Positions 2,540 to 17,524 of a stretch of 32,000 bases of DNA are shown in pieces (position 1 is the first letter of the stretch; the number at the start of each line of letters is the position of its first letter). The notes under the pieces were generated by a model that saw only the letters and a list, made by a program, of their open reading frames with translations, made no database searches and was not told where the DNA came from. This DNA comes from Rhodothermus marinus (GTDB lineage Bacteria > Bacteroidota > Rhodothermia > Rhodothermales > Rhodothermaceae): contig NZ_AP019797.1 of NCBI RefSeq assembly GCF_009936275.1, forward strand, positions 1,811,890 through 1,843,889. Direction: 5' to 3'. The position numbers and the translations under genes are program-made.

Positions 2540-3721
2540 TCAGGCGGTAGCGGCCATGGCTTCGTCCGGACGCGCAGAAGCCATGCCGGCCACTTCCTCG
2601 AAAAGCCGATCGTAAGCTTCCACGTGTCGTTTCCAGTCGAGGTGCGCGGGGATTTCGCGGAGCCGTTCCGGCGGCAGCGGCCGCTCCTCACCTTTCAGCA
2701 GGGCCGACAGCAGCCGGTAGAGTTCCTCCTCGTCCTCGTACAGCGTGGGCGCGTGCAGCAGCGGCCGATGCAGCGGCTCGGGAATCAGCTCCGGATAGCT
2801 CAGCCGGTTGGGAAGCAGCGGATGGCAGCCACAGTAGATCGCCTCCAGCACCGCCACCCCGAAAAACTCGTGGCGGGCCGTCGAGACGATGATGTCGGCC
2901 CGGTGCAGCAGGCGGCTGTATTCCTCGAAGTCCTCGGCGTAGCCGTAGTGCAGGATGCGGTCGGCGTAGCGCTCGAAGGCCTTGTCCAGTTCGTAGGGCT
3001 GTTCCTCGAAGCGCTCGCCGGCCAGAATCAGCCGGAAGCGGTGGCCGGCGTCGTCCAGCCGGTTCATCACGCGCAGGAAAACTTCGGGCGCCTTGTCGTA
3101 CTCCCAGCGCTGGTTCCAGAGAATGATGGGCGGCGGCATGCCCGGACCCCAGTAGCGCGGCCGCCGATCCCCCGCGTACTGGTCGTGCGCCGACAGATCG
3201 ATGCCCGGATAGAGCACCGAAGCCTTGGCGCGAATCTCCTGCACGGCGTCCAGGTGCGTGTAATCCGGAAAAGCCCGGAGCAACTGCGGCAATGCCTCCA
3301 GAAATTCTTCCATGTGGAAGCGCGTGTTGAACAGCACCCGATCGGCCGCCAGGCACGACAGGTAGTTGATGTACCCGAAGGCCGGATCCCGCTCTTTGCC
3401 CTCGGGCAGCGGATAGGTCAGCGCGTTTTCATGGAAATAGAGGATGACGGGCACGTGCGCCAGTTTGCTGCGCGTCAGCGACAGGAAGGCGGGCAGGTTC
3501 ACCATGTTCGTGGCGAAGATCACATCGGGCCGAAAGCCTTCGTCCCAGGCCTGCAACGCCTTCCGCGCCATGGTGACGGCCCCGCCGTGCATGCGCCAGC
3601 GCCGGTAGCGCGGCGCCATCGTTACCGCATGAAACCGATGCCGGCTGTGGCGCATCAGCCCGTCCAGAAAATTCCTGTGAGACCCTCCGTACCAGGGCTC
3701 CAGTGCCAGAATGTTCAGCAT
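2540..3721 (-). CDS. DUF3524 + group-1 glycosyltransferase (GTDC1 / tRNA-queuosine mannosyltransferase-like)
   Basis: 393-aa ORF. The N-terminus 'ILALEPWYGGSHRNFLDGL' matches my recollection of the GTDC1/DUF3524 N-terminal motif. The C-terminal half has GT-B features ('STARHEFFGVAVLEAIYCG'). Confidence 0.7.
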   Translation of the reverse strand: MLNILALEPWYGGSHRNFLDGLMRHSRHRFHAVTMAPRYRRWRMHGGAVTMARKALQAWDEGFRPDVIFATNMVNLPAFLSLTRSKLAHVPVILYFHENALTYPLPEGKERDPAFGYINYLSCLAADRVLFNTRFHMEEFLEALPQLLRAFPDYTHLDAVQEIRAKASVLYPGIDLSAHDQYAGDRRPRYWGPGMPPPIILWNQRWEYDKAPEVFLRVMNRLDDAGHRFRLILAGERFEEQPYELDKAFERYADRILHYGYAEDFEEYSRLLHRADIIVSTARHEFFGVAVLEAIYCGCHPLLPNRLSYPELIPEPLHRPLLHAPTLYEDEEELYRLLSALLKGEERPLPPERLREIPAHLDWKRHVEAYDRLFEEVAGMASARPDEAMAATA

Positions 3722-5031: not shown

Positions 5032-8000
5032 TCAAGCAACCCACTCGCCACACAACACCTCCGTTTGACTCAAAACCAGCTCCACAGCCTGTTCCTGTTT
5101 GTCGGGCGGATAGCCATATTTGCGCAGGATACGCTTGACGAGTACGCGCAACTGGGCGCGGGCGCTCTCACGTCTATTCCAATCTACCGTTACACTTTTG
5201 CGTACGCTTTCGACCAGTACCCGGGCGATCTCCTTCAAGGTTTCGTCTCCGAGCACTTCTACAGCGCTTTCATTTACCGCCAGCGCATCATAAAACGCCA
5301 CTTCATCTTCGGACAGGCCGAGCTCTTCACCACGGCGCGTGGCTTCTCGTACCTGCCTGGCAATGGCGATCAGTTCTTCAATCACCTGCGCGGCTTCGAT
5401 GGCGCGATTGTGATACTTGTTCAGGGCCCGCTGGAGCAATTCCGAGAACGCCCGCGACTGCACCACGTTTTTGCGCAGGCGAACCTGGATCTCATCCTGA
5501 AGGAGTTTTTTCAGCGTCTCTACGGCCAGATTTTTCTGCGGCAAGCTGCGCACTTCTTCAAGAAACTCATCGGAAAGAATGGAAATGTCGGGCTTTTCCA
5601 ATCCCGCCGCCGCGAAGATATCCACTACCTCGCAGCCCGAGATCGCCCGGGAAACGAGCTGCCGAACCGCCGCTTCAACCTCCTCCGGGGCGCGCTCCGC
5701 CGAACTCACCGTAGCCTTGATCAGAGCCGCCCGAATCTCCTGAAATAGACCCACCTCGTCGCGAATAGCGAGGGCCTCCTCGTGCGGCACCGCCAAAGCA
5801 AACGCCTTGGACAGCGCCGCCACGGCCTGCAGATAGCGCTTCTTACCGTCCTCCCGCCCCAGAATGAAGTCCATGGCCTCGGCAATGCCCTGCAGGCGCT
5901 CATCGGGAGCAGCAGCCAGCAGGCGCCAATAGTCGAATCCGTGCAGGATGCCGCAGACGACCTCGTACTTCTCCTTCATCACTGCCACGGCTTCGGCCTG
6001 ATCGATGGCCGCCTTGCCCCGACCGCCGCTTTCAGCGTACACGGCAAGCGCCTTCTTGAGGGAATCGGCAATGCCCAGGTAGTCCACCACCAGCCCGCCG
6101 GGCTTGTCGCGAAAGACGCGGTTCACGCGGGCGATGGCCTGCATCAGATTGTGGCCGCTCATCGGCTTGTCGATGTACATCGTGTGCAGGGGCGGCGCAT
6201 CGAAGCCGGTGAGCCACATATCGCGCACAATGACCAGTTCCAGTTCATCGTTTGGGTCTTTGAAACGTCGGGCGAGAAAGTCCCGGCGTTCTTTGTTGCG
6301 GATGTGCGGCTGCCAATCGAGCGGATCCGAGGCAGAGCCGGTCATCACCACCTTGATCTTCCCCCTGGCGTCGTCGTCACTGTGCCACTCAGGACGCAGG
6401 GCCGTAATGGCCTTGTACATCTCCACGCAGATCCGACGGCTCATGCAGACGATCATGCCCTTGCCCAGCAGGGCTTCCCGCCGCCGTTCCCAATGCTGCA
6501 CGAGGTCCTCGGCCACAAGCCGGATGCGCTTCTCCGCTCCCACCAGAGCTTCCAGCGATGCCCATTTCGACTTCAAGCGTTCCCGGCGGACGACATCCTC
6601 TTCGGCTTCGGTAATCTCCTCGATTTCCTCATCGAGCCGCGGTTTCTCCGCCTCATCCAGTTCGATCTTCGCCAACCGGCTTTCGTAGTAGATCGGCACT
6701 GTAGCGCCGTCTTCCACTGCGCGTTGGATATCGTAGATGGAAATGTAATCGCCGAAGACTGCACGGGTGTTTTTGTCTTCCTTCTCGATGGGCGTCCCGG
6801 TAAAGCCAATGAACGATGCGTTGGGAAGCGCATCGCGCATGTGGCGGGCGAAACCGTCAATGAAGTCGTATTGACTGCGGTGGGCTTCGTCGGCGATGAC
6901 AACGATGTTGCTCCGCTCCGACAACGTCGGGTAGCGTTCCCCCCTGGTTTCGGGGAAGAATTTCTGGATGGTGGTGAAAATCACGCCGCCAGAGGCAACT
7001 TGGAGGAGTTCTTTCAGGTGCGCCCGGCTTTCGGCTTGCACGGGGGTTTGGCGCAAGATCTGACGGTTGGCGCTGAAGGTGGCAAAAAGCTGATTGTCCA
7101 AATCGTTGCGGTCGGTTAGCACCACGATGGTGGGGTTTTGCATGGCGGGGTGCCGGATGATTTTGCTGGCGTAGAAGACCATGGAAAGGCTTTTGCCCGA
7201 GCCCTGGGTATGCCAGATGACCCCGACGCGCCGGTCGCCGAACTTCGGGCGATATTCGGCTTTTGGTTCCCGGACCGCAAACGGATCAGCGGCCGCTGCT
7301 TCTTGAAAGCGAGCGTATAGCGTGCTGGCATCCGCTTCAATGCCACAGGCGACGAGTGTGGAAGCGAGCGCCTGATTGACGGCATGGTACTGGTGATAGC
7401 CGGCGGCCTTCTTGGCGATGCCTGCTGTGCCCTTGTCCACCTGTTCGAAGGTGATGAAGTTGAGCACGTAGTCGAGAAAGCGCCGACGCTCGAACATACC
7501 ACGGATCAGGGTCTTCATCCCCGGCTGCACCATACCTTCGCTTTGCTTGTCGTTTCCCGGCTCGCGGTAGAGGTCGGTCCCGTCGATGGTGCGCCAGGGC
7601 ATGAATCGGTCCCAACCGGACGTCAGCGTCCCGAAGCGGGCCTGCATGCCGTCGGAAATGACGAGGATCTCGTTGTAGGTAAAGAGCGAAGGAATCTCCT
7701 GCTTGTAGGTCTGCAACTGATTGAAGGCCGCCCGTAGCGTGGCCTGCACCGTGCCCGGGTCTTTCAACTCGATCACGACCAGCGGCAGACCGTTGACGAA
7801 GAGCACAATATCCGGCCGCCGCTCGTGCTTGTTCTCGATGACCGTGAACTGGTTGACTGCCAGCCAGTCGTTGTTGTCCAGGTTTTCGAGGTCGAGCAGC
7901 CACACCTTGCCGTGCTTCTCCCCTTCCGGTCCCATCCAGGAAACATCCACGCCGTCGGTGAGCATCTGATGGAAGCGGCGGTTGTTCTCGATGAGCGCCG

Positions 8001-8244
8001 GACTCTCGGGCGTGAGCACCTGGCGCAGGGCCTCTTCGATGGCCACGGCGGGCCTGTCCGGATTGATGCGCTCCAGCGCCTCCCGCAACCGCCCCTTGAG
8101 CACCACATCGCCGTAGGTTTCACGTTCCGGCCGTAAGCTCTCCGGGGCGAGGTCGGGGCCGTATGCGGTCTGCCAGCCCAGCGCCTGGAGCTCGTCCAGG
8201 GCCATTTGTTCAACGTCCTCTTCCACAAGATTACCCATGGCCAT
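5032..8244 (-). CDS. hsdR: Type I restriction enzyme R subunit
   Basis: N-terminal PD-(D/E)xK module '[19 protein letters not shown]'. SF2 motif I 'TQGSGKS' (GSGKS at 7189-7203), motif II 'DEAH' (6880-6891), and 'FTGTP'. C-terminal '[30 protein letters not shown]' (DUF3387-type tail). The start is set at ATG 8244 ([24 protein letters not shown], a typical HsdR N-terminus); the ORF-track start at 8322 is an upstream extension. Confidence 0.95.
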
Positions 8245-9385
8245 TCCCGTTTTCGATTTCACGGCGCAACCAATCCAGCAGCGGCTCAATCGCCTCCTCG
8301 TCCAGGCCATCGATAGCGGCAATCTGGATCAGGCGTTTCAACGTCACACGCACCGCCGCCCGTTTTGACTCGCGCCTGCTCCAATCCACGACTGCGAGGT
8401 CTTCCATTTCGTCAAGCAGCGTGTTGGCGAAACGGTGCACCTGCTCTTTCTGGTCGCCCCTGCCACCCAGCAGCCGATGGACGACGAACTCGTAAAGCAG
8501 ATGTACCTTCTCCCGAAACCGCCCCTGATAATCGTCAAGGAGCTGTTGTCTTACTGGCTCGGCGACGGGTTCCGACGGTACCGCTGGCTCTTCTTCTGAA
8601 ACAAATTCGCCCGATTCCCCTGCTTCCTCCTCGACCAATTCCGTTCTTTCCTCCTCCTCGGCTGGCATTGCCCCTTGTAACACATCAAGCACGCTTATGT
8701 AGGCCTGCCGGTCCAGGTGATACAGCAATTCGCTGGGCGGCACGCGCAGTTCGATGGCTTCCTCAGGCGTCTGCGTGCCTGCCTGAACCCGCACCACCAG
8801 CACGCCAGCCTCCTCATCTACCTCAGCCTCCAACGCACAGCCTGCATCGATGCGCTCGTTGAGATGCCGAAACCGCTCTGGCGGCTCTCTGGTGGTCCGA
8901 AGATTGGGCTCCCTGCCGTCGTAGGCGCTCAGAATGAGCGCAATGACCGAGTCGGCCGAGAGCAAATATACCCTCATATGCCGGTTCGCAATCGTGTCGA
9001 GAAACCCATCCCTGCCATGCGCGACGCTGCCGTCCTGATTGCGCAGCTCGTTCAGCCCCTCGACCAGTTTATTGTGCCCCGAGATCACCTTGCCCAGTGG
9101 TCCGACGCCGCGCTGGTTGCGCAATCCCAGGGCGTCCAATACGCAGGAAAGCAACTCCGTTGTCGTCGGCGTGGAGGAAGCCGGTCCCTCTCTCCCCAGC
9201 TCGTTGAGCACCGTCCAGCAGACGCACTCCAGGAAGGACTTGATCAACTCGATGACGCTGCTCCCTTCCCCCTCCCAGGCGCGGACGAGCTCCCGATAGT
9301 GTTGTTGAAGATTGGCGGCATCCGGCCAGCGCTCGACAGCGGCAGGATAGGCCGGGGCGATGTCGTCGAGACGGTTGGCACTCAT
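8231..9385 (-). CDS. 384-aa protein: Abi_C/HEPN-like N-terminal domain + poly-Glu linker + HsdR-C-terminus-like tail
   Basis: '[19 protein letters not shown] ... [17 protein letters not shown] ... [19 protein letters not shown]' follows the Abi_C (abortive infection C-terminus) pattern as I recall it. The C-terminal '[21 protein letters not shown]' matches the HsdR tail. Start ATG 9385 lies 2 nt after the PIN-gene stop (TAG 9388-9390). The 3' end overlaps the hsdR start by 14 nt. Confidence 0.75.
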
Positions 9386-9387
9386 GT

Positions 9388-9876
9388 CTATCTCTCCAGA
9401 ACGAATCGAGCTCGCTCGTGCCGCAACATTTCGAAGGGTGTCATCACCTTGATGCCCAGTCCCACACACACGTTCGGAATCTTGACCTTATTCCGCGTGT
9501 CGGCAGGCTTCTCATGCGTTACAACGACAAACCCACCGGCCAGCGCATGGGCGATAAGCCAGTAGTCCGCCACCTGGAAAAAAGCGTTCTTGGCAGCCGG
9601 GGTGTATCCGTTGCTGTTCACCCATTCGCTCACCGCACCCATCGCTTCGAGAACAGTCGGATCTGGTTTCAAGAAGAAGCCATCCCGCTGAGACGACACC
9701 CAAACCGCCAGTTCATCGTCGCCCGCCTCGAGTTCGTCCTTGACCTTCTCAATGCTGAACACCTTGCCGGCCTGGTTGCTTTCGACCAGCCAGTCCCAGA
9801 AGGCTGGGCAGAAGTCCATGCCGTAATGCAGGTTCTTGGCCGCTATGAAGACGTTGGCATCCAGCAGGTATCTCAT
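9388..9876 (-). CDS. DUF4411-type PIN-like nuclease (putative toxin)
   Basis: 162 aa. 'MRYLLDANVFIAAKNLHYGMDFCPAFWDWL' and 'KIPNVCVGLGIKVMTPFEML' match the DUF4411 pattern I recall. The start overlaps the ImmA stop (ATGA at 9873-9876). Confidence 0.75.
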   Translation of the reverse strand: MRYLLDANVFIAAKNLHYGMDFCPAFWDWLVESNQAGKVFSIEKVKDELEAGDDELAVWVSSQRDGFFLKPDPTVLEAMGAVSEWVNSNGYTPAAKNAFFQVADYWLIAHALAGGFVVVTHEKPADTRNKVKIPNVCVGLGIKVMTPFEMLRHERARFVLER

Positions 9877-11024
9877 GCCGGAATCTCCAGACGTTGCGCC
9901 AGCTCATAAAAGGTCCGGCTTTTTCGCACGCCGAGAAGGCGAAACGCCTCGGTAAAGGGCGTTTGTCCCTCCAACGCGCTCACGATCACCGCCCTGGCGA
10001 ATCGTTTGCCCACATGAGCGCCCAGGGTGTTGTAAAAATCCCCGCCCTTTCCTCCGGGCGAAAGCTGCTTCAACCGCTGTAACTCTTGTTGCCATGCGCT
10101 GTCCAGTGTTTCCCAATTGATCCACCCGGCATCGAACAGACGGCGCAGGATCACCAGGGTGCTGACCTTGAAGCGCCGCGCCAGCCGCTCCAGCGTCTCG
10201 GGTAAAGGTTCGCCTGCCACCAGGTTCGCTCGCACGGCTTCAAGCGGAGCAAGGAATTCCGCCGCCACCGCATTGCACCAGCGCTCGGTCCGCTCGTCGG
10301 GAAGAACGCGCGCGTCGCTATCGCTTACGCCAGATTGTCCCAACCAGAGGTGCGCCAGTTCATGGGCCAGGGTGAACATCTGTCCCGCCTTGCTGTCCCT
10401 GCCATTGATGAACACCAGCGGGGCCAGGTCGTCGGCCAGCGCGAATCCGCGAAACTCGGAGACATCGAGCGGGCGGTGGGTATTGCTGCCGACAATGCCG
10501 CTGACCATCACCAGCACCCCGGCATCTTCGGCCAAGCCGATGAACTGTCGCAGCGCTTCAGTCCATGTCGTCATTCGGGAACGGGCTTCTATATCGAACC
10601 CGAGCTGTTCGCGCATCCGAGCGGCCACCTCCGCCGGGGCATCCTGAAGCGTCGCCGAGCCCACAAAGGCAACCGGCGGTTCGCCATATAGCCGGGCAAA
10701 CTCCCGGTACCAGGCCTGCCGCTGCTGACAGATGTAGATCGTTTCCAGCAGGTCGGCGCTGGGGGAGCTATGGCGTGCCTTCGACGTGGTGCGAAAATCG
10801 GGGATCGGCAATGTCTCTTCCGGCGGTTCGGCCAGAAAGAAATAACCGATAGGGGTATGGGTGGCGCGGGCGAAGTCCTCGAGCTGCCTGAGCGTGGGTT
10901 GCCCCTGCCCTTCTAACCAGTCTTCGAGCTTCTTGAAACGACGAGACAACTCCTCCGGCATGCGGCCAGAGCGCCGCATGGCCCAATACAGGAGTTCGGG
11001 TTTAACAGGCACCCGCAAGGTCAT
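9873..11024 (-). CDS. XRE-type HTH + ImmA/IrrE (COG2856, DUF955/M78) zinc metallopeptidase
   Basis: 383 aa. The N-terminal 'LEDWLEGQGQPTLRQLEDFARATHTPIGYFFL' is HTH-like. HEXXH motif 'HELAH' at 10350-10364 within 'FTLAHELAHLWLG'. Confidence 0.85.
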   Translation of the reverse strand: MTLRVPVKPELLYWAMRRSGRMPEELSRRFKKLEDWLEGQGQPTLRQLEDFARATHTPIGYFFLAEPPEETLPIPDFRTTSKARHSSPSADLLETIYICQQRQAWYREFARLYGEPPVAFVGSATLQDAPAEVAARMREQLGFDIEARSRMTTWTEALRQFIGLAEDAGVLVMVSGIVGSNTHRPLDVSEFRGFALADDLAPLVFINGRDSKAGQMFTLAHELAHLWLGQSGVSDSDARVLPDERTERWCNAVAAEFLAPLEAVRANLVAGEPLPETLERLARRFKVSTLVILRRLFDAGWINWETLDSAWQQELQRLKQLSPGGKGGDFYNTLGAHVGKRFARAVIVSALEGQTPFTEAFRLLGVRKSRTFYELAQRLEIPA

Positions 11025-11053
11025 ACCGCATCCTCCTGAATCTTCTCTTCATC
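11021..11053 (-). repeat. Remnant copy of the hsdS 3' end (..EEKIQEDAV-stop overlapping the immA ATG)
   Basis: 30 of 33 nt are identical to 12628-12660 (tcataccgcatcctcc[t/a]gaatcttctc..). Both copies end in the same ATGA stop/start overlap. Confidence 0.8.
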
Positions 11054-11141
11054 TGGCACGATGTCGGAGCCGTACCTCACGGCCCAGCATATGGACTCGA
11101 GCCAGACACAGACAGCGGCTTTGGTGATAGATTCAGCGAAA

Positions 11142-12059
11142 TCAGCCCTTATCATTGATCCGTCTCCTGTTCCCTGCCTTAAAACGCTCGGGCTGCCCTT
11201 TGACAAACTCCAGCTCATACCGGCGACGGTCAAGAAGCTCCAGAAACGCCAGCTCGTGGCCTTCGGAGACCTTGAGTTTACCGTCTAATTCTTCGACTTC
11301 GACACCATTCTGCTCGCAGAGAGCCTTGAGCAAGGATTTGTCGACATTCTTGGTTAGCTCTTGACTCCGGATCGAGGCAAGGTAGCGGGCTGCCCTCGTA
11401 TGCTTTTTGGCATATTCCTCGATAGGGGCTAGTTCTACGAATGGAAGATCACTTTGGATCGCTTTGATGTTCTTCGGCACCGCATCCAGAATGGCCTGCT
11501 GGAGCTTGCCTGCGAACTCAAATCCACTGGGCCGCAGGATGTAGACGTTCTTCGAGTCAGCGAGAAGGTCGAAGTCAATATCCAGCTTGAACACACGGTC
11601 TTCAATCAGCTTGAGTGAGTCCGAGACTAATCGAATCAGGCGGCTCTTCAAAATCCCCTTGAACTGCGTAGCTCGCCGAAGGGCGGTCAAACGCCGATGC
11701 TTGTTATCCGTGAGCTGGGCGAAGTAACAGAATATGTTCGAAGGATCATTCAACGCACCGCTATTGGTGGGCAGATTGGCAGCTTCGTGCAACGTTTTTA
11801 CTGCGGCTGCCATCTCGTGGTCTAGTGGCAGATAGAGGCACTCTCTACTCTCGTATTTCTCGGACGGCTCGTACTCCCTCGGCCCGTCCTCGCAATTGTT
11901 CAATGCATTCCACGTTGCCTGCGCCATCTCGCGAAGCGCTCTCTGCACGCCCACATCTACTGGTACAACGACGAACGTTTGGTGGTCGCCGGCATCAATG
12001 CCCACGCCAAATGTGGTCACGGTCACGTTCTCGAAATCAAAGTCTATGGTTAACCTCAT
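11142..12059 (-). CDS. 305-aa cytoplasmic protein, KwaB-like (DUF4868-type) candidate
   Basis: Size and position (immediately after, and ATGA-overlapping, a 4-TM gene) fit Kiwa KwaB. 'FKLDIDFDLLADSKNVYILRPSGFEF' resembles the DUF4868 core as I remember it. Not verified by any search. Confidence 0.5.
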   Translation of the reverse strand: MRLTIDFDFENVTVTTFGVGIDAGDHQTFVVVPVDVGVQRALREMAQATWNALNNCEDGPREYEPSEKYESRECLYLPLDHEMAAAVKTLHEAANLPTNSGALNDPSNIFCYFAQLTDNKHRRLTALRRATQFKGILKSRLIRLVSDSLKLIEDRVFKLDIDFDLLADSKNVYILRPSGFEFAGKLQQAILDAVPKNIKAIQSDLPFVELAPIEEYAKKHTRAARYLASIRSQELTKNVDKSLLKALCEQNGVEVEELDGKLKVSEGHELAFLELLDRRRYELEFVKGQPERFKAGNRRRINDKG

Positions 12060-12631
12060 GTCTCAGGCTCTAAATAAACTGTATCGCTCAAGCGATAGGC
12101 TATAAGCTTTTCACCAGAAGCGAGACTCACGCGGCGCGTGATTAGAACCAAGGGCACCCTGCCGGTAAGTGGATTGCCGTCATCCGGCGGATAGACCGTA
12201 AACACTCGGTAGCCCCGTGCAGCAAAGACCAGATTCATGTAGTGCAGGTTTAGGTGCCAGAATAGGAATACAACAAACGCCAAAGCGGCAACAGTAGCCC
12301 CAAGGTCACGCCAGTTCCCAAGATCTTCCGAGTAGAACGGCAGCAGCATCGCGAACAGGTAAACGAGAATGTGGTCGCGATGGTCGTCAGAAGTGCCAAC
12401 AATCAGCTCGCGTTTGTCGTTTTCCTTCTTCGCTGTTGCAATGCGCAGCCATAGAAAGGCGTTAGGAACAACTACCATCAGCGCACAACACCCGACGAAC
12501 CAAGGATCGGGGAGAAGACTGTTTCCACGGATAGCCCATAGGATAAAAAGCGGCGAGATGCTGCTGAGCACCATCAGGAGTCGCGCCGCCTTGAGTCCCT
12601 CGCGATGAACGGTAACAGGACGCATGTTCAT
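12056..12631 (-). CDS. 191-aa four-TM membrane protein, KwaA-like candidate
   Basis: Four hydrophobic segments: 'LLMVLSSISPLFILWAI', 'FVGCCALMVVVPNAFLWL', 'ILVYLFAMLLPFY', 'ATVAALAFVVFLFWHL'. A soluble tail of about 55 aa follows. The start overlaps the hsdS stop (ATGA at 12628-12631). Confidence 0.5.
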   Translation of the reverse strand: MNMRPVTVHREGLKAARLLMVLSSISPLFILWAIRGNSLLPDPWFVGCCALMVVVPNAFLWLRIATAKKENDKRELIVGTSDDHRDHILVYLFAMLLPFYSEDLGNWRDLGATVAALAFVVFLFWHLNLHYMNLVFAARGYRVFTVYPPDDGNPLTGRVPLVLITRRVSLASGEKLIAYRLSDTVYLEPET

Positions 12632-13896
12632 ACCGCATCCTCCAGAATCTTCTCCACATCCTTCACCCGCAACTCGCCAGAGATCAGTTTGGGCAGCAGC
12701 GTGTCGCGCAGGGCAGCAAGGGTGCGGGATTCCACTACATAATGATCCTGCAAAGCTCTCATCTTTGATACAAATTCAGAAAGTTTAGAAGCTAAGTTGC
12801 TTCCTGGCCAGAGAATTGGTAAGCACTCAATATCGCTATTTGCTACAAAAGGCTGTGCTGCCCCTTTTTTGATTACGTCAATGTTTGCATTGCGTAGCGC
12901 AAGATATAACCATTCTCCAAGTTTGCGTTCATGAACTCTAACCAAAGAAGCATTGTTGTTTATCCAAGCTTCGCCGATATGTCGGAAAAACTGCCCGCAA
13001 TATGCTCCCACTCTTCCAACAGTTATGACAAAACCAGTTGCGTTGCTAATAGTTGTGTAGCCCATAATACCCGCACCTCCAAAAACGGGCACGGGACCAT
13101 GATCTTTGATGTACTTTTTGGAAAGCTGCTGGCCACCTTTTAGAGCAGCAAACTCCCTGACCTGTTTTATCTCCCACCCCTCCGGAATCGGCCCCAGTTC
13201 CGACTCCACGAAGCGGGCGGGGAAGAGGCGTAGGATGTCTTCGGGCAGGCCAAGGGCGTCGGGGTTGTCGCGGTAGTGGGCGGCGCGTTTGGCGAACTTT
13301 TCGGGGATGGGGTTTCCGGCGCGCAGGGCGTTGACCACCACCGGGTCGAAGTCCACGAACCAGGACTTGAAGAGCGCCTGGGCCATGGCCTCCAGGGTCT
13401 CGTTCATCCGCCGGTTCAGCTCGATCTTGTCATCCAAGGTGCCGAGGATGTGGGCAATGGCGCGTTGTTCGGGAAGGGGTAAATAAGGCCTCTTAAATCT
13501 TTCTACATGTTCCCATTTCGCCCGCGGCATTCGAGTACCTTCGGAACCTTTGCTGGCAAAGTCGATGAAATCGTGAGCAGCCATCCAATAGAAAAGATAA
13601 TTCTGATCAAAACCCTCTTTTGCACGCACTACCCAGATATCCGTAGAGCAAATGCCATCAAATGGTGCACGTATTACCTTACGGAAATATGGACGCAGTT
13701 TTCCAAAAAGTATGTCGCCTTTTCTAAATCGGAATTTTGCACTACTGACATCGGAAGCATATCCCCAACCAGCAAGTCGTAATGTGCCCTGCTCAATGTG
13801 TTCAAGACCAATATAGGGCATTTTTCCAGCTTCTTCAGGCTGGACAACATCCCGCACAAGTTGGGCCACATCACGAAATGCGACCTCGCTTCCCAT
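12628..13896 (-). CDS. hsdS: Type I R-M specificity subunit with two dissimilar target-recognition domains
   Basis: 422 aa. 'PYIGLEHIEQGTL...FRKGDILFGKLRPYFRKVIRAPFDGICSTDIWVV' is a classic Methylase_S pattern. Central conserved region 'LPEQRAIAHILGTLDDKIELNRRMNETLEAMAQALFKSWFVDFDPV'. Distal 'LAALRDTLLPKLISGELRV'. Confidence 0.92.
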   Translation of the reverse strand: MGSEVAFRDVAQLVRDVVQPEEAGKMPYIGLEHIEQGTLRLAGWGYASDVSSAKFRFRKGDILFGKLRPYFRKVIRAPFDGICSTDIWVVRAKEGFDQNYLFYWMAAHDFIDFASKGSEGTRMPRAKWEHVERFKRPYLPLPEQRAIAHILGTLDDKIELNRRMNETLEAMAQALFKSWFVDFDPVVVNALRAGNPIPEKFAKRAAHYRDNPDALGLPEDILRLFPARFVESELGPIPEGWEIKQVREFAALKGGQQLSKKYIKDHGPVPVFGGAGIMGYTTISNATGFVITVGRVGAYCGQFFRHIGEAWINNNASLVRVHERKLGEWLYLALRNANIDVIKKGAAQPFVANSDIECLPILWPGSNLASKLSEFVSKMRALQDHYVVESRTLAALRDTLLPKLISGELRVKDVEKILEDAV

Positions 13897-13907
13897 AGAT
13901 CACCCCT

Positions 13908-15962
13908 TCATGGATTCAAGAAGGCCCGATTTATCTCTTCAAACAGATTACTGGCTATCCTGAAAACATCAGTGGGGATTTTTTCTGAACCATCCATAAT
14001 CCAGTCCCGTAATACCGCAGCGGGTCGCCACTTCTCGAACCGACCAAGTCCCTTGTACTCAAAGAGCGCCTTCACTTTGTTTACAACGCCATCGGTTGTC
14101 TCTATGTCCTCGTCAAACGTTAGCTGGTCGATATTGTAGGCTTCCCTTACTGCTTCCAGGTAAACCTCTTCAGGAAAAATATCTTCGAGCTCTGCATATG
14201 GTTTTTCTGGCAAAAAATCCCCAATGAATAGGCAACGTCCTGTTTCACCTGCAAATAAGTTTTCGGTGAGCTTCTTGCCTTCCTTGCGACCTGGTTCGTC
14301 ACCATCCAAGAGGGCTACAACCTCGACGTCATGGCCAATAAGCATACTAGCCAGGGGAAATAATTTGCTCAAACCAGCTGATGGAACAATAACCACATCA
14401 TCCCGAAGGGCTGACTCACCGCGCTGTCGAAGCAACTGGTCAAACGCCTTGAGAATCCAGTAGTCGGTAATCCCTTCAACGATTAGTTGGCGCTTGCTGA
14501 TAAAAAGAGATTGAACAAGCTGATACCCTAAGCCTGCCTGAAGTGGGAAAAGAGCATCTTTGTCACGAGGCCAAATGTCTTCTGATACTTTGGTCGTTCC
14601 ATCTTCTGCCTCATAGACAATACGGACTCGTTCCAAGTGGTCTGCATCTATCATAAAAGGGGAGTGGGTTGTGTACATTGTCTGATTTTCTTGGGAAAGC
14701 TTCTCAAGGAACTTGACCACCTTTGCTTGGGCTGTCCCATGCATGTGCAAGCCGGGCTCGTCCAGAAGGAGAATTGCCTTTTGATGTGCCCCTTTCGCTT
14801 CAACAAGGAAAACGGTAAAGAATGAGAAGAAATACTGCATACCCAAGCTGCGCTGGTCCAGTTCGATCTCGCTTGGATCAAGGTCATCAGAAACCCAAAT
14901 ACGGAAAAAGTCCCCGTCTGCTTGATAGCGGAACTTGTGGCGGCGCTGCTCCCACCAGTCTTGGAATTTGGTAGTCATGGCATTTGACGCTGAAGATAGT
15001 TTTATAGCGCGCTCATCAACGTAACGGCGGATCTTTTCAATAGTCTGGGAATCCATTTGCTGTCCTGGCTGGTGCTTCTTCCCAAGTGCTGCTAATTCTT
15101 CCACATCGAGACCCACGTGCTCAAATAAGCATCGCGTTGTGCGAACGCGGGGCGCGGTAGGATTTTGGTTGAGCTGCTGCACAAAAGTTGGGAGATGAAC
15201 GGCGCTGTCAATTACGTCGTAGCGGTCAAAGTAGATGAACTTTGGAAGATTGTTTTCAACCCATTGCTTGGCTTGCGCCAGTTCATAACCAAAGGAAGCG
15301 CGCTCAAGCAAGCTCTGGGCTTTTTTGCTTATATCCTGGAGAAGCTTTTTTTGCCATTGCTCGTTTGATTGCGTAGCGATGGTGTGTACGAGTCTCTCAA
15401 CTTCGGCTTTCGGTACAACTTCATCCGGCCTTGTTGAGGATTGTTGATTTTCAAGCTGATAGAGGGTCTGAAGGAGGGTATTCTTAATTGCACCGAGAGC
15501 ATCGCCCTTACCTTCGGGGGCGGTCAGATCACTCAGCGTTTGCCGAATCTCTCCAATGGCAGTTTTGAATTCAGTACGAGTCAAGACAGAAGTAGGAGGA
15601 GCGGGTTCAAATTCTACTGACAATTCCCAAGAGTAATGGCGCGTACATGTCACCTGCTTGACGTCCGCAAGTGCAGAGCATATTTCGGCAAGCTTCTTGC
15701 GATCGATGTCGTCAAGCTCAAACCTGCCGCTTGCTACAGGCCAATCTTGCTTTTGGAATTCGTCGGTATAACGCCGTCGTGGAAATTCTTTAAGTCCATC
15801 GTATCTTTCACCGTCGGATGGGTTGAGCTTGGAGAGGCCTCGAAACAACGCTGACTTACCTGCTTCATTTTTTCCCACGAAGCAGGTGAGATCACGGACA
15901 CTAACCCATCCTGTATCTTGAATCTTCTTGTAGTTTTGGACGCGAAAAGCTACAAGTTTCAT
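13908..15962 (-). CDS. OLD-family nuclease (ABC-type ATPase + C-terminal TOPRIM)
   Basis: 684 aa. Walker A 'GKNEAGKS' (15852-15875), ABC-signature-like 'SLGMQ', Walker B 'ILLLDEPG', 'TTHSP'. TOPRIM Glu in 'LIVEGITD' (E at 14475-14477) and 'DGD' (14298-14306). The start overlaps the hsdM stop (ATGA at 15959-15962). Confidence 0.8.
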
Positions 15963-17524
15963 AATTCATCCTCCTTCGTATAGAATCCAAGCACCTCCAG
16001 GTTTTTCTTGATTTCCGCCTCCAGCCGGCGGGCTTCCTCGAACTGCTCATAGAGCGTGGCGGTCAGTTCGGCCATCTTCTCTTCAAAGGGAATGCCGTCG
16101 TCCTCTCGCTCCTCCACGCCCACGTAGCGTCCCGGCGTGAGCACGTAGTCGCGCTGGCGGATATCCTCGATGGTGGCCGACTTCCACCAGCCGGGTTTGT
16201 CCTGGTAACCCTCGCCCTTCTTCCAGGCGTGGTACACGTCTGCGATCTGGCGGATTTCCTCCTGGGTCAGCTCCCGGTGCACACGGTCCACCAGGCGGCC
16301 CATGCGCCGGGCGTCGATGAAGAGGGTTTCGCCGGTGCGGTCGCGATAGCCTCGCTTCGGGTCGGCCTTCTTATTGCGGGTGAGGAACCAGAGCGAGACC
16401 GGAATCTGCGTGGTGTAGAAGAGCTGTCCCGGCAGGGCGACGATGCAATCCACCAGGTCGTCCTCGATGATGCCCTTGCGAATCTCGAATTCGGCCTTCG
16501 TGGATGTAGAGAGCGAGCCGTTGGCCATCACGAACCCGGCAATGCCGTTGGGGGCCAGGTGATAGATGAAGTGCTGGATCCAGGCGTAGTTGGCGTTGCT
16601 CGCAGGGGGTACGCCATATTTCCAGCGCGGGTCGTCCGTGAGCCGCTCCCCGCCCCAGTCGCTCATGTTGAAGGGGGGATTGGCCAGGATGTAGTCGGCC
16701 TTCAGGTCCTTGTGCAGGTCGTTGTGGAAGGTGTCGGCATGGTGCGGGCCCAGGTCGGCGTCGATGCGGCGGATGGCCAGGTTCATCTTGCAGAGCCGCC
16801 AGGTGGTGGGGTTCGACTCCTGGCCATAGATGGCGATGTCGCCGAGCTTCCCCCCGTGGGCTTCCACGAACTTCTCCGACTGCACGAACATGCCACCCGA
16901 GCCGCAACAGGGGTCGTACACGCGCCCGCGGTACGGCTCGATCATCTCAACCAGAAGTTGCACGACGCACTGGGGCGTGTAGTACTCGCCGCCGCGCTTG
17001 CCCTCCTTCTCGGCAAATTTGCCCAGAAAATATTCGTACACCCGCCCAAGCGGGTCTCGGACGCCGTATTCCTGCGCCTTCAGGTTGATATCGCCGACAA
17101 GCTTCACCAGCTCACCCAGGCGCACCTTGTCCAACGTCGGGCGGGCGTAGTCCTTGGGCAACACCCCCTTGAGCGACGGGTTCTCCCGCTCGATGGCCGC
17201 CATCGCCTCGTCGATGACCTGGCCGATGGTGGGCTGTGGCGCAGCCGCCTGAATTTTCTCCCAGCGCGCCTCGGGCGGCACCCAGAAGACGTTGGCGGCC
17301 AGGTACTCGTCGCGATCCTCGGGGTCGGTGAACTCGGTGTCCTGCTTGGCCTTGAGCTCCTGGTACTTTTCCTCGAAGGCGTCGGAAATGTATTTGAGGA
17401 AAATCAGCCCCAGCACCACGTGCTTGTACTCGGCGGCGTCCATATGGCCGCGTAACTTGTCGGCCATCTCCCAGAGCTTGTTCTCAAAGCCCAGATTGGC
17501 GCCGTTTGTTTTATTCGTATCCAT
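15959..17524 (-). CDS. hsdM: Type I R-M N6-adenine DNA methyltransferase subunit
   Basis: 521 aa. HsdM_N pattern '[34 protein letters not shown]', AdoMet motif '[12 protein letters not shown]', catalytic 'NPPF' (16670-16681). Confidence 0.95.

Follow-up and report, generated by a model that had tools for sequence, protein, structure and literature searches.

A predicted HEPN RNase gene within a Type I restriction-modification operon of Rhodothermus marinus encodes a C-terminal tail derived from HsdR

Why should a protein encoded within a Type I restriction-modification (R-M) operon end in what looks like the tail of that operon's own HsdR subunit? The question is raised by a 32,000-nucleotide (nt) stretch of the Rhodothermus marinus genome (contig NZ_AP019797.1, positions 1,811,890 to 1,843,889; hereafter the window, in whose numbering all coordinates are given), where the gene upstream of hsdR encodes a protein of 384 amino acids (aa). 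The original prediction, made from the letters of the window, held that the last ~64 aa of this protein are a diverged copy of the HsdR C-terminus and that they might tether an abortive-infection effector to the R-M complex. We find that the tail module descends from the last ~70–90 residues of the T1RH-like_C domain of HsdR and that it is an old, selected feature. The protein that carries it, judged from its HEPN/Abi_C sequence to be a predicted metal-independent RNase, is an obligate passenger of Type I operons.

The segment at issue, nt 8255-8449 of the minus strand, encodes residues 313-377 of the 384-aa open reading frame (ORF), as had been claimed, while nt 5035-5244 encode the final 70 aa of HsdR. 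Re-counting the 21-aa core of the alignment returned the 13 identities reported for it. By BLASTP, residues 314-354 pair with HsdR 1001-1041 in an ungapped alignment, with 16 identities in 41 positions (E 3e-6). The ungapped 64-aa alignment scores 69, which is the top offset along the whole of HsdR; among 5000 shuffles, each scored at its best offset over all of HsdR, the mean was 7.8 (standard deviation 7.2), the maximum was 47, and none reached 69. The shared motif also sits at nearly the same distance from the C-terminus in both proteins, 71 residues in the 384-aa protein and 70 in HsdR. When hhalign was run with the tails of the whole family against the C-terminal domains of HsdR from their own loci, residues 323-368 aligned with positions 281-326 of the HsdR domain (46 columns, probability 96.8%, E 2.4e-10). 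A tail-only family hidden Markov model (HMM) recovered each cognate HsdR by its C-terminus (E 1e-6 to 1e-10); in the 51 loci surveyed, it matched no further ORF.

These comparisons identify the tail with the conserved end of the family formerly called DUF3387 and now T1RH-like_C (PF11867), in agreement with the original assignment. The profile match that the assignment implied was indeed present (residues 312-354 against profile positions 261-303 of 329, E 8.4e-5), but its 22.5 bits fall below the Pfam gathering score of 26.8; relatives do pass the cut-off, among them P0147 (28.9 bits) and the FRG-domain protein P0180 (31.9 bits). Seen against HsdR, the tail covers ~247-322 of the 329 profile positions and takes in the best-conserved block, [VI]DW..R...A.[LIV][RK]V..[KR]R.L. 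Of the ~330-residue T1RH-like_C domain the 384-aa protein thus has the terminal quarter only, behind a disordered linker. Pfam found no full T1RH-like_C domain and no helicase or nuclease domain in it, the matched part of the profile being ~261-303, or 247-322 in relatives. Nucleotide identity over the aligned codons is 39–45%, and third positions are 24–27% identical. The latter is the random level, so the divergence of tail and HsdR is old, and a recent duplication is excluded, as had been argued.

In direct comparison, statistical support extends over about 41–46 aa, less than the ~64 aa first proposed. The remainder is bridged by a second protein family. A tail-profile search over 1.84 billion cluster representatives gave 461 matches at E <=0.001, and we inspected the best 150. 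Of these, 147 were new, nearly all of them members of the HEPN-tail family or C-terminal fragments of HsdR. P0180 is one of the few exceptions: it is 399 aa long, carries an FRG domain (PF08867) and matches the PADLOC candidate model PDC-S15 at E 1e-101. Aligned by hhalign, the FRG tail covers positions 250-337 of 341 of the HsdR C-terminal domain, over 85 columns and to the C-terminus (probability 99.0%, E 2.8e-18), and it covers residues 309-377 of the HEPN protein over 69 columns (probability 98.8%, E 1.2e-16). The weaker direct match is thereby bridged, and the homology extends to the whole terminal module; over the full ~64–69 aa, the original proposal is supported by way of the FRG-family tail.

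The FRG proteins also occupy a familiar place. The tail is present in 88 of the 120 FRG homologs examined (median length 426 aa for tail-bearing and 300 aa for tail-less proteins). In 4/4 contexts examined, the tail-bearing gene directly follows hsdS; three of the four show the full order hsdM-hsdS-X-hsdR(T1RH-like_C), and the fourth contig holds hsdS, X and a gene cut by the contig end. That FRG proteins bear the same tag at this operon position points to a portable adaptor that could serve alternative effectors. Operons with FRG plus tail were seen flanked by integrases and defence genes, including Thoeris ThsA/ThsB (L052 202-1558) and a Prim-Pol island (L053 347-4507), settings consistent with mobile defence islands.

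Five further exceptions stood among the best 150 of the 461 matches: P0265 and the fragmentary P0152, P0159, P0193 and P0194. P0265 (CHAT/TPR) is apparently spurious, with no match to the tail HMM or PF11867, and P0159 (ExbD plus tail) lies on a 1.3-kb contig of ~1x coverage and is probably an assembly chimera. P0152 (L061 304-996; 230 aa) has a coiled-coil-like N-terminus and a tail of the HEPN-family type but no HEPN domain, and an hsdR start follows at 1003; it may be a third tail carrier or a degraded family member, its 1.1-kb low-coverage contig being too short to interpret. The metagenomic protein P0194 (162 aa) has two tandem HsdR terminal modules (tail-HMM 42-81 and 104-161; two PF11867 stretches, 106.5 bits in total). 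A tblastn search of plasmids with the HsdR tail returned HsdR genes or fragments only and no third tail-bearing family.

What, then, does the tail sit on? An AlphaFold2 (AF2) model built with the family alignment (mean pLDDT, the predicted score in the local distance difference test, 75) divides the protein into four parts: a helical part (1-155), an alpha/beta part (169-236), a disordered stretch (240-279) and four C-terminal helices. The first part contains a Pfam match to Abi_C (Table 1), which belongs to the HEPN RNase superfamily as its AbiJ-type branch (PMC3710099); PF14355 is precomputed in all listed homologs. The PADLOC match to AbiJ is weak (E 2.8e-4) and confined to the HEPN part. 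Pfam found no AbiJ_NTD in the protein and its HEPN domain is N-terminal, so the layout is not that of AbiJ proper. Residues R115, H123, G124 and D126 are invariant in 29 aligned sequences, and the model has the R115/H123 pair at a helix break. In 41 sequences the pair is likewise invariant and its spacing, RN-x6-H, does not vary; this places 7 residues between R and H, one beyond the range of the canonical motif (Rx4-6H). Pfam and PADLOC revealed no ATPase domain in the protein, and Pfam no FRG domain (PF08867); the PDC-S15 model of PADLOC matches residues 306-373 only, that is, the tail.

Downstream of the HEPN part, the middle domain has the invariant residues T165, R166, R226, A228 and Y229. 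The linker that follows carries a mean net charge of -8.9 across 41 family members. Mean pairwise identity in the same set is highest for HEPN (0.54) and the middle domain (0.51), lower in the tail (0.30–0.39) and lowest in the linker (0.19). Modelled alone, the tail is compact (pLDDT 87.3, predicted template modelling score 0.79), with D334-W335 in the loop joining its helices 2 and 3 and a basic helix at 336-356 (mean net charge +5.2). In the alignment of 29 members, Y286, G288, D334, R338 and W372 do not vary, and >90% of sequences conserve W335. Such a layout in the model, with a domain, a disordered acidic linker and a confidently predicted four-helix module, fits a tethered docking element.

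The architecture is not peculiar to R. marinus. A search of 5.8 billion proteins gave 215 relatives of ~380 aa, with identities down to 34–38%. Among the best 120 of these, which we inspected, nearly all are 360–400 aa long and align end to end at identities down to about 38%, and none is a full-length HEPN family member lacking the tail. Many of the distant ones have a precomputed PF11867 match beside Abi_C. To survey genomic context we took one genome per species, which gave 51 loci, annotated with the window's proteins. They span >12 phyla, with groups that include Gammaproteobacteria, Desulfobulbia, Spirochaetes, Ignavibacteria, Cyanobacteria, Planctomycetes, Acidobacteria, Chloroflexi and Deinococcota. 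The occurrence of Abi_C plus HsdR-tail proteins beside hsd genes, which the original prediction had left to a phylogenomic survey, is thus widespread.

An hsdS gene lies upstream on the same strand in 47/51 loci, and in 38 of these it overlaps the HEPN-tail gene or sits <=4 nt away; hsdM is upstream in 41/51. An hsdR with T1RH-like_C follows downstream in 39/51. A same-strand downstream hsdR is missing from 12 loci: in 10 of them the sequence stops within 1.7 kb, in L022 a pair of inserted genes precedes the contig end, and in L050 the hsd genes are on the opposite strand. Among the 51 loci, none with adequate flank is devoid of Type I genes. The distance to hsdR is variable, with an overlap in 11/39 loci and 13–4938 nt in the others. 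The inserts comprise RhuM-like and DUF262/GmrSD-like genes, a two-gene AAA-ATPase cassette, ImmA, KwaA/KwaB and insertion sequence transposases (ORFs named by eye from sequence, KwaA/KwaB by phmmer). The HEPN-tail gene is therefore coupled more tightly to hsdS than to hsdR: the tight hsdS junction and the variable hsdR junction define a conserved unit hsdM-hsdS-X, with hsdR farther downstream. The window is atypical because its X abuts hsdR and is separated from hsdS.

Use of this insertion hotspot ahead of hsdR was seen in L007, L018, L021, L023, L033, L035, L036, L038, L039 and L043. Passenger modules of the window turn up again in this operon family at other positions. In L019 (11292-12772) and L024 (5771-7377), KwaA/KwaB follow the HEPN-tail gene and precede hsdR. 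A pair of ImmA and DUF4411 genes occupies the hsdM/hsdS gap in L001 (2168-4116); in L006 (448-2180) the pair is flanked by an hsdS fragment and the HEPN-tail gene.

Two trivial origins of the tail can be set aside. Conserved residues together with recurrence in 51 loci and >12 phyla rule out a fossil of a deleted second hsdR, an outcome that the original prediction had named as fatal to it. Conservation imposed by an overlapping hsdR promoter or ribosome-binding site is likewise out, as the nucleotides are diverged, the protein is conserved and the gene is mostly not adjacent to hsdR.

What the tail is for is a matter of analogy. To our minds there is about an even chance that the HEPN RNase is docked through its HsdR-derived tail on the R-M complex, likely the M2S1 core, as an abortive-infection back-up. 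An acidic, flexible tether of ~50 residues links the enzymatic part to the four-helix module. Within HsdR, the module would be the part that makes contact with the Type I enzyme, in all likelihood with its HsdM2-HsdS core, and on the HEPN protein it would act as a docking tag, holding the RNase at or near an HsdR site and keeping it silent. Release would follow when the complex is perturbed, for instance by anti-restriction proteins that mimic DNA or when a subunit is lost or displaced, and the outcome would be a back-up to restriction of the kind that PrrC provides for EcoprrI and RonA for Ronin. Both serve as precedents for an effector that is silenced on a Type I core until anti-restriction proteins set it free. 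HEPN RNases are usually dimeric and M2S1 has two HsdR sites; one might speculate that a single HEPN dimer with two tethered tags spans both of them.

The comparison with PrrC and its Type Ic host EcoprrI is close in several respects. Both have a HEPN-superfamily RNase gene inside an hsd operon, and the guard logic proposed is the same, with R-M as the first line and the RNase as back-up when R-M is inhibited. PrrC, however, has an N-terminal ABC-ATPase regulatory domain, whereas the 384-aa protein is without ATPase and has an HsdR-derived C-terminal module; its HEPN subfamily is, unlike that of PrrC, of the Abi_C/AbiJ type. Physical association has been shown for PrrC, and for the 384-aa protein we infer it by analogy. 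We know of no report of an HsdR-like tail on PrrC.

Ronin consists of HsdS-HsdM and a 61-aa effector, RonA, a tiny transmembrane toxin, and its loci are usually without hsdR. There the effector is thought to be caged by the Type I methyltransferase core and freed when anti-restriction proteins bind, and the arrangement proposed here would be analogous. RonA, however, has no HsdR-like sequence, whereas here a 384-aa soluble helical protein bears an HsdR-derived tag and hsdR is present wherever flanks allow. The PDC-S15 proteins are found at the same operon position (hsdM-hsdS-X-hsdR), and most of them have the C-terminal module too; their N-terminal part is unrelated (FRG there, HEPN here), and about one in four of the close FRG homologs is without the tail but occupies the same slot. 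With the AbiJ-type HEPN solos (PMC3710099) the 384-aa protein shares the Pfam HEPN subfamily and the lack of AbiJ N-terminal sensor domains; it differs in having its HEPN domain at the N-terminus, followed by the conserved alpha/beta domain, the linker and the HsdR tail, and in an R-to-H spacing of 7 rather than 4–6 residues.

We looked for covariation between the tail and the R-M subunits in tests that are exploratory, uncorrected for shared ancestry and to be read as hints only. Effector and HsdR tails score slightly better when cognate, at 64.1 against 60.3 for non-cognate pairs (permutation p 0.003, n=28). In 21 complete operons, a partial Mantel test of tail distance against HsdM distance, given the N-terminal part, yielded rho 0.42 (p 0.0004); the reverse test, of the N-terminal part against HsdM given the tail, yielded rho 0.17 (p 0.08). 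For the HsdR core the partial Mantel value, rho 0.37, was much like that for HsdM.

The alternative that fares best is that the module binds nucleic acid, namely DNA near the motor in HsdR and DNA or RNA for the HEPN and FRG effectors, with no docking on R-M. The charge of helix 336-356 speaks for it, its HsdR counterpart being still richer in R and K, and the title of the crystal-structure paper by Grinkevich et al. 2018 ties the C-terminal domain of EcoR124 to both complex assembly and DNA binding. A generic binder, however, would need no particular context, and over the 51 loci the family never occurs outside Type I operons with a T1RH-like_C HsdR. In addition, the divergence of the tail tracks HsdM, and the best 150 of the 461 tail-profile matches led to the HEPN family, FRG proteins and HsdR termini only. 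We regard this alternative as unlikely.

The module might instead bind HsdR itself, or be a shared signal for turnover, localisation or assembly chaperoning, so that the effector would be co-regulated with HsdR or sense it. The gene overlaps the start of hsdR in the window as well as in the 11 loci noted above, which suggests coupled translation, and the partial Mantel value for the HsdR core nearly equals that for HsdM. Yet the hsdR junction is the variable one, with inserts up to 4.9 kb, while that with hsdS is tight; and HsdR tails are almost invariant where effector tails vary, with no joint change in close relatives. We know of no turnover, localisation or chaperoning signal in the T1RH-like_C HsdR family, which counts further against such a role, and we give it a rather small chance. 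That the protein is an independent Abi-type toxin merely riding in the operon, its tail a leftover of an old hsdR 3' fusion kept for folding or solubility, would accord with the many unrelated defence genes embedded in Type I loci that act alone, such as TgvAB and those of the 'guilt by embedding' survey, and with the existence of tail-less FRG proteins, but is improbable given motif residues that are invariant over >12 phyla and common to HsdR and FRG tails, a tail apparently acquired or retained in two unrelated families, and full-length HEPN relatives that all carry it among the best 120 of 215.

Several points also weigh against docking on the methyltransferase core. A contact of the last 70–90 residues of T1RH-like_C with HsdM or HsdS is one that we infer by analogy. 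For EcoR124I and EcoKI, a contact of the C-terminal helical domain of HsdR with the methyltransferase has been proposed, and a part in assembly assumed (PMC5248579); the C-terminal domains of HsdR for which a role in assembly is known have no detectable sequence similarity to that of the window. Sequence searches of the PDB with the HsdR C-terminal domain matched no solved chain, EcoR124I HsdR included, and a Foldseek search of the PDB with the tail-only model gave nothing at E <1, again including EcoR124I HsdR. The strongly basic helix 3 would fit nucleic-acid binding equally well, the covariation signals are small and ignore phylogeny, and HEPN activity is predicted from an invariant R and H at an unusual spacing. 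Finally, tail-less 300-aa FRG proteins fill the same operon slot, so the tail is dispensable for embedding. Foldseek with the tail-only model against viral structures gave nothing at E <1 and thus no phage mimic, and the full-length model, multi-domain with a floppy linker, gave only noise against the PDB.

As a generalization that we offer tentatively, and would sooner doubt than assert, the four-helix module may be a portable docking tag and Type I cores may be platforms for HsdR or for alternative effectors such as a HEPN RNase or an FRG protein. If so, one and the same sequence-recognition machine could serve DNA restriction or else a response that is suicidal or acts at the RNA level, according to which subunit is docked or released. 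To our knowledge the contact between PrrC and EcoprrI has never been mapped, the caging of RonA is a model, and the wiring of effectors to R-M is poorly understood. Here a sequence element can be named, comprising an invariant D-W...R, a basic helix and a terminal W, and common to HsdR and two unrelated effector families. Should the tag dock on M2S1, it would locate the unmapped HsdR-methyltransferase interface of the T1RH-like_C HsdR family and explain the confinement of HEPN-tail and FRG-tail genes to Type I operons, and further R-M-coupled effectors could be recognised by their tails rather than their enzymatic domains. The adaptor hypothesis is concrete and cheaply testable.

R-M-embedded HEPN Abi effectors are of an already known kind; what appears to be new is the HsdR-derived tail. 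Anantharaman et al. 2013 (PMC3710099) noted that AbiJ proteins without N-terminal domains are commoner in R-M operons and proposed a functional, PrrC-like coupling; their text has 0 occurrences of HsdR and describes no shared C-terminal module. The 2024 preprint of Payne et al. on 'guilt by embedding', which deals with genes embedded in Type I R-M, mentions none of HsdR, FRG and AbiJ. In the searchable literature, which is sparse in subscription journals, we found no description of an HsdR-derived tail on two embedded effector families, and the feature appears to be undescribed. Databases hold the combination of Abi_C and T1RH-like_C implicitly, as precomputed Pfam matches, under the label 'abortive infection family protein'.

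Table 1. Genes of the defence array and parts of the 384-aa protein (window coordinates)
Feature	Position (nt)	Strand	Residues	Basis or remark
hsdM	15959-17524	minus		Pfam HsdM_N and N6_Mtase, 372 bits
OLD-type AAA_15 + TOPRIM gene (OLD/AriA/GajA-like)	13908-15962	minus		between hsdM and hsdS
hsdS	12628-13896	minus		Pfam Methylase_S, two stretches
Kiwa KwaA	12056-12631	minus		
Kiwa KwaB	11142-12059	minus		
ImmA/IrrE metallopeptidase (RmrA-like)	9873-11024	minus		
DUF4411 PIN-like protein	9388-9876	minus		paired with ImmA/IrrE
384-aa HEPN + HsdR-tail gene	8231-9385	minus	1-384	ATG 9385, TAA 8233-8231; ORF list
N-terminal all-helical domain	8906-9385	minus	1-160	AF2
Abi_C (AbiJ-type HEPN) match	8930-9142	minus	82-152	PF14355, E 7e-10, 39.3 bits (gathering score 24)
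Putative RNase active-site motif, R115-N-x6-H123 then G-[KR]-D	9017-9043	minus		alignment; helix break in AF2 model
Small alpha/beta middle domain	8678-8893	minus	165-236	AF2: helix, three strands, two helices
Acidic disordered linker	8516-8674	minus	~238-290	pLDDT <50 over 240-279
C-terminal four-helix module	8255-8515	minus	291-377	helices 291-305, 313-330, 339-356, 363-376
Core of HsdR homology	8282-8446	minus	314-368	BLASTP, hhalign, Pfam
hsdR	5032-8244	minus		Pfam HSDR_N, SWI2_SNF2, T1R_D3-like, T1RH-like_C (457 bits)
HsdR terminal module, source type of the tail	5035-5304	minus	last ~90 of HsdR	hhalign

The defence array of the window is made up of nine tightly packed minus-strand genes running from 17524 down to 5032. 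The start assigned to the 384-aa gene is matched by an equivalent Met in all 28 aligned homologs, and the ATG of hsdR at 8244 (or 8238), read from the sequence, falls within its final codons. Start/stop overlaps of 4 nt join nearly all the genes nested in the Type I operon (9388-15962, minus strand). GC content falls from ~60–65% to 48–53% over KwaB, KwaA, hsdS and the OLD-like gene (~11000-16000), a drop which suggests that this block, hsdS itself included, was recently imported.

Two minor observations lie beside the operon proper. For Synechococcus SYNW1659, an inactivated operon whose first gene encodes DUF3387 gave less cyanophage (PMC5490813); we speculate that such a phenotype would arise if a free C-terminal domain of HsdR were in competition with HsdR for the methyltransferase core. 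Just beyond the defence locus of the window, a glycosyltransferase gene on the minus strand (2540-3721) matches QTMAN_N, the N-terminal domain of tRNA-queuosine mannosyltransferase, at E 1e-58.

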